Origin: Oscillospiraceae bacterium
Lineage (GTDB): Bacteria > Bacillota > Clostridia > Oscillospirales > CAG-272
DNA length: 64,000 bases
Reading direction: 5' to 3'
Assembly: GCA_015064445.1 (NCBI GenBank)
Contig: SVSE01000003.1
Span: 150,324 to 214,323 of the forward strand
Below the pieces are notes generated by a model that was not told the origin of the DNA, did no database searches, and saw only the letters and a list, made by a program, of their open reading frames with translations. This document shows positions 17,724 through 56,250 of the stretch, in pieces; position 1 is the first letter of the stretch; each line of letters starts with the position of its first letter. Both the position numbers and the translations under genes were made by a program.

Positions 17724-17799
17724 TGAAAAGGGGACGAAATCCACCAAGGCGTACCACAAAACCATGGATTTCAGGCGTTTAAGCTAAACCGTCCTAAAA

Positions 17800-17920
17800 T
17801 TAAGAGCATTTAGGCAATATTAGACAAGGCGCACCACAGTAGGCGGACGAAGGCTATCTTCGGGATAGTCGAGGTCGACTACGAGGAGCAACGCAGTATA
17901 ATGAAGCGTAAATCTCTTAA
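17800..17920 (+). repeat. Structured ~120-nt repeat family, copy 3
   Basis: Arms TTAAGAG/CTCTTAA, then AGGCAA..AAGGCGCACC, a central hairpin GGCTATC/GATAGTC, and GAGGAGCAACG. The stop codon of the galactokinase-like gene lies inside the right arm. Confidence 0.85.
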
Positions 17921-20058: not shown

Positions 20059-20219
20059 ATGAATCGGTGCTACACACCATGAATCGATGCTAACGCATCA
20101 TGAATTCTCGCTTCGCTCCATGAATCGAATTGCAACGCCAAATGCCGAAGGCAATTCATGCGATTTATCGCAATTCATGACACACAGTGTCAATTCATGC
20201 AACGCAGTTGCAATTCATT
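20059..20219. repeat. Hairpin-linker array, ATGAAT/AATTCAT family, copy 2
   Basis: Near-identical to 7980-8136. The differences are concentrated in two hairpins (first hairpin replaced, another altered) plus one substitution in the central segment. Confidence 0.85.
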
Positions 20220-22609: not shown

Positions 22610-24799
22610 ATGAAGGGAAACAAGTGGATTACACATCCCGAGGCGCAAATCTCGGACAATAAAACCTATTATTTCAAAAAGAGCTTCACTCTTGACGATA
22701 TCTCGGACGGTGTTGTTGAGATTTCGGCACAGGCAAGATACAAGCTTTTTATAAACGGAGAGATGGTTGGTGTTGGACCCTGCAAGGGCTCACGCGAAAA
22801 GACCTTCTTCGACACAATTTGCGTTGAAGGCTACCTCAAAAAGGGCGAAAACGAGATTTTCTGCGAGGTGCTTCAGCTCGTATCAACTGATATGGAGGGC
22901 AAGATGTCTCCTATCGAGGGCGTGCTTCGTGTTGGAAGCGCTATTCTCACAATGGAGCTTCGTGCAGGCGACACCGTTCTTCAAACCGACGAGAGTTGGC
23001 TTTGTGCTAAGGTTGACGCAATTGAGCATTTGAGCGCGCGCTCCTGCTACTCTGCTACAACAAGAGAAAGGTGGGACGGTGTGTCGCTAAAATCGCTCGA
23101 ATTTGTTAATGCCAAGGTTATGACAGGCGTTTCAAATGGCGAGGAGGACCACTACTGGTGGGGCGCTACAAACAAGTGCTTCCTTTTCGAAAGACCTATT
23201 CCGATGCTCGACTTCAAGGACAAGACCTCGATTGTCAGCTTCGACGGTACATATTTTGAGGCAGAATACCTCACATTCGGCTTCCCTCGCTTTAAGATAA
23301 GTGGCAAGGGCAAGGTTGATATTGTTTATTTTGAATGCTTCGACAGCGATAAGGGAAAGACCAACTCGCACCGTACCGACCGTTCTCTTGGAATTTGCAG
23401 AGAGATGATTGACACAGTTATCGTTGATGGCGAGCTTACCTTTGAGCCATTTTGGTTCAGATGCTTCCGTTTTATTAAAATAGAGTGCGAGGGCGAGGTT
23501 CAGGTGTCTCTTGACAAGCTCACAGAGGTTAACTATCCTCTTGAAATTCGCACAGATTACGACTTTGGACGCGACGATGATAATGCTCTTTGGGAAATCA
23601 GCGTTCGCACACTCCAAAGATGTATGCACGAAACCTACGAGGATTGCCCGTTCTATGAACAGCTTCAGTATGCTATGGACACCTCTCTTCAAATGCTTTA
23701 TAACTATCAGCTCTCCGATGACGATTTGCTTGCGCGTAAGGCGATGAGCGATTTCGATCAGGCTCAGCACGCGGACGGACTTATGCCATCGAGAACTCCT
23801 TGCGTTGTAGACCAGCACATTCCAACATTCCAATTCTACTTTATCTTTATGGTGTACGCACACTACATTCGATTTGGCGACAAGGCGCTTGTTCGTGAGC
23901 ATCTTCGTGCTATGGACGGTGTAATTGAGTGGTTTAAGCGCCATATGACACCTCAAGGTCTCGTTGGACAGAGCAAATACTGGAACTTCGTTGACTGGGC
24001 AAAGCCTTGGGGCTATGTTGAGGGCAAGTGCGATGGTGGTGTTCCTGTTTACATTGACGGTGGCGAGATAGGAATTTACAATCCTATGATGGCTTACTTC
24101 CTACAATGCGCATCAAAGCTCAATGCTATAATCGGCAGGGGCGATGTTGCAAGGGAATATCTTGCCTTGGCTGATAGCATTCTCGAGAATACAAATAAGT
24201 ATTTCTGGGACGAGGAAAAGGGACTCTATGCAGACGACCTCGCTCATAGCAGATATTCACAGCATATGCAGACATGGTGCGTGCTTTCAGGCGCTTGTGA
24301 CCGAAAGAGAGCGAGGGCTATCATGGAAAACTCGCTCAACCTCGACGCAAAGGCGACATATGCGTTTGCTTACTTCTACTTCCGTGCCCTCGAGGCTGTT
24401 GGAATGTACGACAAGACCGAGGAAATGATGGACTCATACAGAGGTCTTCTCAAGCTCGGCTGTACTACAATCCCAGAAACTCCAACCGAGTCAAGAAGTG
24501 ATTGTCACGCTTGGGGCGCACTCGCAATTTATGAATTCAGCGCAACCATTCTTGGCGTTCGCACCTTTGATGTTGAGGAGAGGTCAATCTCGATTAAGCC
24601 ATACATCAAGGGCAGAAATAGCGCAAGAGGTACTGTTTCCACAATTGCTGGTAATGTGTTTGTTTCTTGGAGATGCGAGAACGGACAATTTACAATACAT
24701 ATCAAATCCGAGGACGGCGTGCGCAAGGTGATTTACCTTCCAAACGGCGAAGCCTACGAAAGCACTCTTAACGAAATCACTTTAAGCTGTGCGATGTGA
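22610..24799 (+). CDS. GH78-like (alpha-L-rhamnosidase six-hairpin) family glycoside hydrolase
   Basis: YEDCPFYEQLQYAMD motif, (alpha/alpha)6-type central region, 729 aa. Confidence 0.55.
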   Translation: MKGNKWITHPEAQISDNKTYYFKKSFTLDDISDGVVEISAQARYKLFINGEMVGVGPCKGSREKTFFDTICVEGYLKKGENEIFCEVLQLVSTDMEGKMSPIEGVLRVGSAILTMELRAGDTVLQTDESWLCAKVDAIEHLSARSCYSATTRERWDGVSLKSLEFVNAKVMTGVSNGEEDHYWWGATNKCFLFERPIPMLDFKDKTSIVSFDGTYFEAEYLTFGFPRFKISGKGKVDIVYFECFDSDKGKTNSHRTDRSLGICREMIDTVIVDGELTFEPFWFRCFRFIKIECEGEVQVSLDKLTEVNYPLEIRTDYDFGRDDDNALWEISVRTLQRCMHETYEDCPFYEQLQYAMDTSLQMLYNYQLSDDDLLARKAMSDFDQAQHADGLMPSRTPCVVDQHIPTFQFYFIFMVYAHYIRFGDKALVREHLRAMDGVIEWFKRHMTPQGLVGQSKYWNFVDWAKPWGYVEGKCDGGVPVYIDGGEIGIYNPMMAYFLQCASKLNAIIGRGDVAREYLALADSILENTNKYFWDEEKGLYADDLAHSRYSQHMQTWCVLSGACDRKRARAIMENSLNLDAKATYAFAYFYFRALEAVGMYDKTEEMMDSYRGLLKLGCTTIPETPTESRSDCHAWGALAIYEFSATILGVRTFDVEERSISIKPYIKGRNSARGTVSTIAGNVFVSWRCENGQFTIHIKSEDGVRKVIYLPNGEAYESTLNEITLSCAM

Positions 24800-24800
24800 T

Positions 24801-24891
24801 GCGAAGCGTGCTTCGCAATGAAATCCCGCTGGGATGAAATCCGTCAAGGACGGATGAAATCCACCTTTGGTGGATGAAATCGCTTCGCGAT
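24801..24891 (+). repeat. Hairpin-linker array, GAA/ATC..GAT family (5 consecutive hairpins)
   Basis: GCGAAG/CTTCGC is followed by ATCCC-GCT-GGGAT, ATCCGTC-AAG-GACGGAT, ATCCACC-TTT-GGTGGAT and ATCGC-TTC-GCGAT. The ATC..GAT hairpins are joined to one another by GAA. Confidence 0.9.
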
Positions 24892-24940
24892 AGGAATTAA
24901 TTTTAAAAAATAAATTTAGAAAGCAAAAGAAAGGAATTAC

Positions 24941-25062
24941 CTTGAGCCTTCAGAAGCACGCAAGGCAAGGCGCACCGCAGCCGGCAGGCGATGGCTATCT
25001 TTTTGATAGTCGAGGTTGTCGGCGAGGAGCAACGCTGAATTGCACAGCTTACAAGGCTCAAG
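24941..25062 (+). repeat. Structured ~120-nt repeat family, copy 4
   Basis: 10-bp outer stem CTTGAGCCTT/AAGGCTCAAG, block AAGGCGCACCG, hairpin CCGGCA..GGCTATC/GATAGTC..TGTCGG, and block GAGGAGCAACG. Confidence 0.9.
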
Positions 25063-25079: not shown

Positions 25080-25445
25080 ATGAAAATAGCTCTAATAGCC
25101 CACGACAAAAAGAAAAACGACATGATTAATTTGGCAATCGAATACAAGGATGTGCTCTCTCAGCACGAGCTTTATGCTACTGGTACAACTGGCACGCTCG
25201 TTATGGGAGAAACCGGTCTTATGGTTAACCGTATGAAGAGTGGCCCTCTTGGTGGTGACCAGCAAATCGGCTCTATGGTTGCAGAGGGAAAGCTCGACCT
25301 TATCATCTTCCTTCGTGACCCACTTACCTCACAGCCACACGAGCCTGATGTAAGTGCGCTTCTTCGCCTTTGCGATGTTCAATCAATTCCTCTTGCTACA
25401 AATGTGGCAAGCGCAAAAATAATTCTCTCGACCTTGAGAAAATAA
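25080..25445 (+). CDS. mgsA: Methylglyoxal synthase
   Basis: [26 protein letters not shown] motifs. Confidence 0.9.
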
Positions 25446-55957: not shown

Positions 55958-56250
55958 GCGTGTTATCCTTAACGGAGAACACGCATCGAGATAAATCCCT
56001 CGCGGGATTTTCGATATACGCCTATGGCGTTCGATATGTGCTGACGCACTCGATATGTTTGCTGCGCAAACGAGGGATTTATCTCATATCGAGTTCGAGC
56101 AGCCGGGGTTCCCCGAAGCGAAGAATGAGCTTTTGGGGTTCGCAGCGTAGCGAGAACATATCGAGTGGGCAAAGCCCACATATCGACAGAAAGAAAAACA
56201 AGAGCAAGAGTACAAGGAGAAAATCCTTATATTCTTGCTCTGTTTGTTTT
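55958..56250 (+). repeat. Hairpin-linker array, ATATCGA/TCGATAT family, copy B (inverted relative to copy A), with a nested GGGGTTCCCC element and a terminator-hairpin module
   Basis: Its central ~114 nt differ at one position from the reverse complement of 43490-43604. Confidence 0.9.

Follow-up and report, generated by a model that had tools for sequence, protein, structure and literature searches.

The window, i.e., the whole 64,000-nt stretch of DNA analyzed here, belongs to an uncultured Clostridia/Eubacteriales metagenome-assembled genome (MAG) of 1.77 Mb in 13 contigs, which is 97.3% complete. The focal locus comprises a rhamnosidase gene, a hairpin array, a spacer, a different repeat, and a methylglyoxal synthase-like gene (mgsA):

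22610–24799, + strand, GH78-like alpha-L-rhamnosidase gene (ORF list; Pfam Bac_rhamnosid6H, 4e-23)
24800–24817, + strand, hairpin H0 (7 bp, 4-nt loop)
24818–24891, + strand, four ATGAAATC linkers and hairpins H1–H4, a one-armed (forward arm only) Gut-1-type array
24823–24835, + strand, hairpin H1 (ATCCC/GGGAT, loop GCT)
24839–24855, + strand, hairpin H2 (ATCCGTC/GACGGAT, loop AAG)
24859–24875, + strand, hairpin H3 (ATCCACC/GGTGGAT, loop TTT)
24879–24891, + strand, hairpin H4 (ATCGC/GCGAT, loop TTC)
24892–24959, + strand, GGAAT word and A+T-rich spacer, common to the closest relative (L035); right boundary of the swapped module
24960–25040, + strand, different structured dispersed repeat (AGGCGCACC...GGAGCAACGC), no Rfam match
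25080–25445, + strand, mgsA-like gene (Pfam MGS, 3e-17)

The GH78-like ORF encodes 729 amino acids, and the Pfam match bears out the label given to it by a first-pass annotation made from the sequence. Its TGA stop codon (24797–24799) directly abuts the hairpin array. As that annotation had described, five hairpins with stems of 5–7 bp and loops of 3–4 nt occupy 24800–24891; the last four open with ATC and close with GAT, neighbors among H1–H4 are joined by exactly GAA, and the inner stem sequences (CC, CGTC, CACC, and GC) differ within the array. The stems of H0–H4 are all perfect. Three instances of the pattern GAAATC-N8-16-GATGAAATC are present in the window, whereas 100 shuffles gave an expectation of 0.00. 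As RNA, the focal array folds with −38.9 kcal/mol (z = −4.7), and 0 of 200 shuffles are as stable; in the minimum-energy fold, the left arm of H0 alternatively pairs with the right arm of H4, which encloses H1–H3 in a closed multiloop. Fold energy as an indicator of strand preference was discarded for this array, which is devoid of wobble pairs and folds alike on both strands (−38.9 vs. −36.4 kcal/mol).

A scan of the interval between the GH78 stop codon and mgsA gave no promoter-like site, and the sole terminator-like site is a stem (24979–24996) inside the structured repeat at 24960–25040. This repeat is older than the array, since several relatives also have it at the GH78 site. With no promoter-like site, and a terminator-like site only in the older repeat, the focal array is probably co-transcribed with GH78 and mgsA, as part of a common mRNA.

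The focal array is a gene-less, one-armed copy of a Gut-1-type hairpin-and-linker repeat. The Rfam model for Gut-1 RNA (RF01706) matches it at full length with 59.2 bits (gathering score 50), model positions 1–77 falling at 24816–24885 on the + strand. The model has three hairpins between (G/A)UGAAAU linkers, and the focal array has the same design, with four ATGAAAT(C) linkers and five hairpins. Gut-1 was first reported from 43 metagenomic sequences as “human gut only,” with neither host nor function named, and was graded a likely non-coding RNA on the basis of covariation (Weinberg et al., 2010; PMC2864571); Rfam enters its type as “Gene; sRNA.” In the literature searched, besides this 2010 catalogue, only a 2026 RNA structure-prediction study names Gut-1, as a benchmark. 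The copies described here share with published Gut-1 the three or more small covarying hairpins, the (G/A)UGAAAU linkers, and an origin in gut microbiome DNA. They differ in having uncultured Clostridia as the host lineage, ruminant guts included (the relatives comprise MAGs from goat, deer, and sheep gut, among others); in occurring in tens of copies per genome, alongside sister families with other linkers; and in that the complete forms are two-armed and linked to genes of the 23S_rRNA_IVP (IVP) family (PF05635).

In its own genome, the focal array is one of many. There are 15 matches to the RF01706 model, and a linker-agnostic scan identified 22 arrays in which hairpins are accompanied by four or more exact linkers, vs. 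one in a shuffled genome; 30 of 44 weaker arrays lie in intergenic DNA, which constitutes 7.8% of the genome. The genome holds about 35–40 arms of at least six linker families (TGAAATC, TGAATTG, ATGATAT, TCGATAT, AGTGAAG, and ATGTAAT). Across the bacterial order, the hairpin-and-linker architecture is found with at least 10 different linkers; thus, the combination of constant linkers and closing pairs with variable stems, first pointed out at this locus, is real and general. Matches to Gut-1 itself are present in 21 of the 24 genomes of the genus and in 61 of the 151 genomes of the order, with up to 48 per genome, and are often situated within 100–300 nt of contig ends, as expected for near-identical repeats. 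Among uncultured gut Clostridia, the Gut-1-type family constitutes an intergenic repeat with many copies and horizontal mobility. A complete copy has a forward arm of approximately four linkers, which meets a reverse arm with the same linker inverted. The focal array has the forward arm only, and its homologues in sister species (L032, L033, and L024) are two-armed.

The individual hairpins are also shared. Two sister species (L032 and L033) have arrays in which the CCGTC, CCACC, and CGC hairpins follow one another in this order; CCACC, CCCG, CCAAG, and CGC hairpins reappear in the other type-A (TGAAATC) copies of the own genome, which has four type-A copies in all, with common hairpins in the same order. 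The hairpins are therefore not sequence-unique, as the first-pass annotation had called them, and its argument that such a pattern is not what simple duplication produces does not hold: the array as a whole arose by duplication within a dispersed, hairpin-sharing family. Further copies in the window are as follows:

8069–8134, − strand, type-B (TGAATTG) arm of a two-armed composite array; first hairpin formed by the upstream gene’s last 14 nt and an inverted copy round the stop codon
17734–17775, + strand, truncated type-A copy preceded by GGAATKC heptamers; one linker, half a hairpin, then a reversed linker
20152–20217, − strand, type-B arm of a second two-armed composite array, with 92% identity to the array at 8069–8134
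43083–43153, + strand, second type-A arm (RF01706, 48.1 bits; U–G pairs on the + strand)
43180–43252, + strand, type-B arm directly after the type-A arm (RF01706, 36.7 bits)

The fragment previously placed at 17735–17790 is present as the truncated copy. The copy previously placed at 43090–43159 is real, including its T–G pairs, but had not been separated from the adjoining TGAATTG array. In three stems of this second type-A arm, T–G lies next to the closing A–T, and the minus strand would give C–A mismatches. The two arms form a 204-nt double array that is bracketed by a 27-nt direct duplication of the upstream gene’s last codons (43038–43064 and 43269–43295); this insert supplies the upstream gene’s new TGA stop codon.

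The arrays turn over rapidly between species. None of the relatives examined has the focal array at the orthologous GH78–mgsA site; of the 44 orthologous spacers listed, most are a few tens of nucleotides or less and repeat-free. In the closest relative (L035, 92% protein identity), a GGAATKM heptamer module stands in place of the hairpin array, with the GGAAT-TAA A+T-rich spacer and the older structured repeat following it as they do here. At a second site (window position ~8000), the orthologous spacer is 3–16 nt long and empty in two relatives, and other repeats occupy it in four relatives, including the closest (85–87% nucleotide identity). Because orthologous sites are empty or otherwise filled, arrays must have been gained, lost, and swapped between species. 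Judging from these comparisons, the focal copy arrived between the GH78 stop codon and the older repeat in this species only, either by entry or in exchange for another repeat module. Such tiny spacers would force any tolerated insertion to lie beside the stop codon, and the tight abutment to the stop codon could arise without a targeting mechanism. The first-pass annotation had named absence from close relatives, together with a lack of positional preference or transcript, as evidence that would speak against its reading: the array is missing from the orthologous sites, but the family itself is widespread in the genus, as given above, and does have a positional preference. Specifically, the upstream neighbor gene has the same sense as the array in 26 cases vs. 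11, many of the exceptions being reverse arms of two-armed arrays, and seven arrays of the own genome begin 19–24 nt after a stop codon.

Several features speak for a folded single strand. In 21 copies from 19 genomes, the first modeled hairpin has compensatory changes in six of seven pairs and none broken, with U–G as the second pair in 19 of the 21 sequences; the count covers this hairpin only, and later hairpins, of differing unit length, are misaligned in MAFFT. Among 96 distinct hairpins, G–T outnumbers A–C by 17:3 on the linker-sense (TGA) strand (p = 0.003), most of the G–T pairs being at one position dictated by the GUGAAAU linker and hence not independent events. The hairpins are G+C-rich, and their loops are U-rich, or UUCG, on the sense strand. 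The number of linkers per arm has a mode of 4 (range 3–7). The linkers follow one another at intervals of 15–30 nt and hence without phasing on a double helix; with the hairpins looped out, the linker pitch would be constant whatever the stem length. We infer that the Gut-1-type family acts as a folded single strand.

The complete arrays are associated with genes of the IVP family. Two-armed arrays, defined by a 7-mer with two or more forward and two or more reversed occurrences in the 330 nt upstream, precede 22 of 28 IVP genes in relatives, vs. 34 of 1549 ordinary genes of the own genome (2.2%); three more of the 28 have one arm. Arrays at IVP loci usually end 40–60 nt before the start codon, often behind a tRNA gene and terminator. 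In about 11 of 29 loci, the reverse arm and the IVP gene have a consensus promoter between them; in other loci the reverse arm abuts the ribosome-binding site, and in many the forward arm stands behind a tRNA terminator. Arrays at such loci are possibly poorly transcribed. Across 150 genomes from 30 families of the order, 52 have both Gut-1 and IVP, eight have Gut-1 only (mostly one to three matches), 17 have IVP only, and 73 have neither (odds ratio 28, uncorrected for phylogeny). In a protein tree, IVP lineages each have their own linker and clades track linker families, with TGAAAT, TGAATT, and TGAARTC arrays going with one well-supported clade. The coupling of linker and protein is not strict, since the linker GTGAAGT is found with two distant IVP clades; in whole-genome searches, IVP clade identities (50–63%) overlap between clades. 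We found no literature linking IVP genes to repeat arrays.

The own genome encodes three IVP proteins, all outside the window, vs. at least six linker families. Two of the genes are on contig C1 (C1:142786–143145 and C1:145887–146249), wedged into the recF–gyrB–gyrA region, and the third is at C12:148492–148845. The gene between gyrB and gyrA has inverted GGAATKC heptamers on both sides, and a gene-less copy of its upstream module is what fills the GH78 site in L035; another has GTGCGAA heptamers upstream; and the one just outside the window has a two-armed ATGTAAT/ATTACAT hairpin array upstream. These three IVPs go with the GGAATKC, GTGCGAA, and ATGTAAT words, and there is no TGAAAT-clade IVP in the own genome. 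No IVP gene adjoins the focal array, and none lies within 1.5 kb of the best-scoring Gut-1 copies (67 loci, 19 relatives); the association is thus a property of complete arrays and does not extend to all copies.

A pentameric structure of the IVP/S23p family has been available since 2006; the family is not known to have a role outside diversity-generating retroelements (DGRs). Avd, the DGR protein, is another member of this superfamily of four-helix-bundle pentamers and acts on a structured RNA. IVP1 of the present set matches PDB 2RLD (E = 1e-37), which has five chains of the same sequence, and S23p has been described as a homopentameric toroid (PMC4990558).

The best explanation, which we put forward tentatively, is that the Gut-1-type family, to which the focal array belongs, serves as a docking platform for IVP pentamers. 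The complete Gut-1-type form stands immediately in front of genes that encode small pentameric four-helix-bundle proteins (23S-rRNA-IVP/DGR-Avd family). The family would work as a folded single strand, with looped-out hairpins presenting constant linkers at a fixed pitch; and a row of four to five linkers would be the docking site of one IVP pentamer. The first-pass annotation had proposed a periodic platform for a protein; a plausible candidate for that protein is the group of pentameric IVP/Avd-like proteins, which have such arrays in front of their genes. Since the own genome has no member of the IVP clade that goes with TGAAAT/TGAATT linkers, the likeliest status of the focal copy itself is that of a passenger or relic, and any effect would not go beyond stabilizing a 3′ end. 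A bolder version, which we regard as conceivable but doubtful, is that Gut-1-type and sister arrays would be the cognate ligands of RT-less Avd-like (IVP/S23p) pentamers, each lineage reading its own 7–9-nt linker shown four to five times; gene and array would then make up a new small mobile cassette, and the dozens of solo arrays behind genes would function as docking sites and thereby modulate the fate of host transcripts.

Solo copies, the small number of IVPs, the loose linker coupling, and the promoters between array and gene are fitted equally well by docking and by co-mobility without binding. In the latter, the arrays would be selfish, structure-maintained elements that act as portable homology or landing pads; IVP cassettes would move by homologous recombination, and solo arrays would be remnants after deletion between direct copies, in the manner of solo LTRs. 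We consider this unlikely. In its favor, some IVP genes are boxed by direct forward-arm copies (L120) or flanked by inverted arms (L142), modules are swapped at common GGAAT boundaries, many near-identical copies lie at contig ends, and another repeat element is inserted inside a type-B array. Genomes of different bacterial families (L130, of the same genus, and L132, of another family of the order) have near-identical IVPs that share CTCTTAC/GTAAGAG word arrays, both cassettes being behind tRNA genes, which suggests that the cassette was recently transferred horizontally. Insertions of IVP genes between cas genes, inside cas operons, have been described (PMC3936711), and the rRNA intervening sequence has been described as a selfish element (PMC4990558). 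However, co-mobility leaves unexplained the perfect stems, the compensatory changes and strand-specific U–G pairs, the clustering at four linkers per arm, and the ending of the array 40–60 nt before the IVP start codon at most loci.

Alternatively, the arrays could be host elements of REP/BIME type, independent of IVP, in which a multi-hairpin 3′ module blocks 3′–5′ exonucleases or marks a processing site and so stabilizes the upstream mRNA. REP/BIME/REPIN sequences with RAYT, in E. coli and Pseudomonas, are short extragenic palindromes in which the palindrome sequence is conserved. The present arrays resemble them in their many copies, frequent position after genes, clusters of alternating orientation, and maintained structure; in contrast, it is the linker that is conserved here, and the stems vary and covary. 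The arrays also lack the conserved palindrome plus 5′ tetranucleotide by which REPs are recognized. Arrays that begin right after the stop codons of same-sense genes, G+C-rich hairpins with U-rich or UUCG loops on the sense strand, two-armed clusters reminiscent of BIMEs, and the probable location of the focal array inside the GH78–mgsA transcript would all suit an exonuclease block. Such a block, however, needs no constant linker, and the reverse arms point against the neighboring gene; the array is not conserved at orthologous sites, spacers of 10–40 nt would put any insertion beside a stop codon, and no RAYT gene was found in the own genome. A host element of this kind is accordingly improbable as an account of the family.

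Three further readings are very improbable. A free-standing small RNA gene, as Rfam classes Gut-1, agrees with the “Gene; sRNA” type and with the grading of Gut-1 as a likely RNA on covariation by Weinberg et al. (2010), but not with tens of copies per genome that come and go between species, nor with an array that abuts a stop codon and in or next to which the scan detected no promoter-like or terminator-like site. If the arrays were operators or iterons on double-stranded DNA, bound by a DNA-binding protein, this would account for two-armed, inverted-linker arrays next to the −35 of IVP promoters (about 11 of 29 loci), but the linker spacing of 15–30 bp has no helical phasing, and the strand-asymmetric U–G pairs and covarying palindromes point to extruded single-strand hairpins. 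Slippage, fold-back synthesis, or a templated process, giving a by-product with neither partner nor function and also raised in the first-pass annotation, could be read from first hairpins that consist of a gene 3′ end plus its inverted copy and from direct duplications of gene ends (27 and 36 bp) that flank other inserts, but the units are not identical, their order is kept between species, arm size clusters at four linkers, and no reverse transcriptase was found; fold-back may explain junctions, not the maintenance of the family.

Three known systems were also considered as models and rejected on gene content. Matches in the own genome (97.3% complete; controls matched) numbered 0 for the Y1 (RAYT) transposase (PF01797), which excludes a RAYT-driven REP model. 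No match to CsrA (PF02599) was found in the own genome, and a CsrA sponge model, prompted by the GGA-containing heptamers beside arrays, was rejected for want of the gene. CsrB/RsmZ-type sponges likewise have many short single-stranded motifs between and on small hairpins, but the linkers here carry GAA, not GGA, and are dispersed in 3′ regions rather than confined to a single sRNA gene. A retroelement or DGR origin, prompted by the Avd homology and the long target duplications, was rejected because the own genome has no match to reverse transcriptase (PF00078); unlike DGRs, it also has no template/variable repeat pair. The ORF-bearing 23S rRNA intervening sequences of Coxiella and Leptospira (PMC4990558) are similar in having a PF05635 protein and inverted repeats able to form a long stem; they differ from the present arrays, which lie outside rRNA, have arms built of linker–hairpin units, and are mostly gene-less, the focal copy included.

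An orphan in Rfam since 2010, Gut-1 can now be placed as a high-copy, fast-turnover repeat of a defined order of gut Clostridia, and as one of many linker families of the same design, complete copies of which precede IVP genes. Gut-1 and IVP, two orphans, become one testable pair. For annotation, the arrays should be treated as repeats, not as sRNA genes, and they break metagenome assemblies.

Other repeats and junctions were observed in the window and elsewhere in the own genome, where several gene ends run into arrays. At 8069–8134 and at the orthologous positions in L147, L148, and L152, the gene’s last 9–14 nt pair with an inverted copy to form the first hairpin, whose loop contains the stop codon; the arms of this gene-end hairpin covary between species, whatever array comes next. 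The structured repeat AGGCGCACC...GGAGCAACGC, which is unrelated to the arrays, occurs at 24960–25040 and at 17830–17900, 60–70 nt downstream of type-A arrays at both sites, and its inner helices covary. Arrays of the TCGATAT/ATATCGA linker family lie at 43448–43577 (two-armed) and 56011–56056. A type-B array at 47835–48166 is split by a structured element of ~135 nt, which is present in inverted orientation at C1:124199–124496; this locus is one repeat inserted into another. Many loci share one bidirectional terminator hairpin (AAAAACCGACAC..GTGTCGGTTTTT), behind which GGAATKC heptamers regularly stand; intergenic examples are at C1:124199–124496, C12:120629–120846, and C12:143400–143490.
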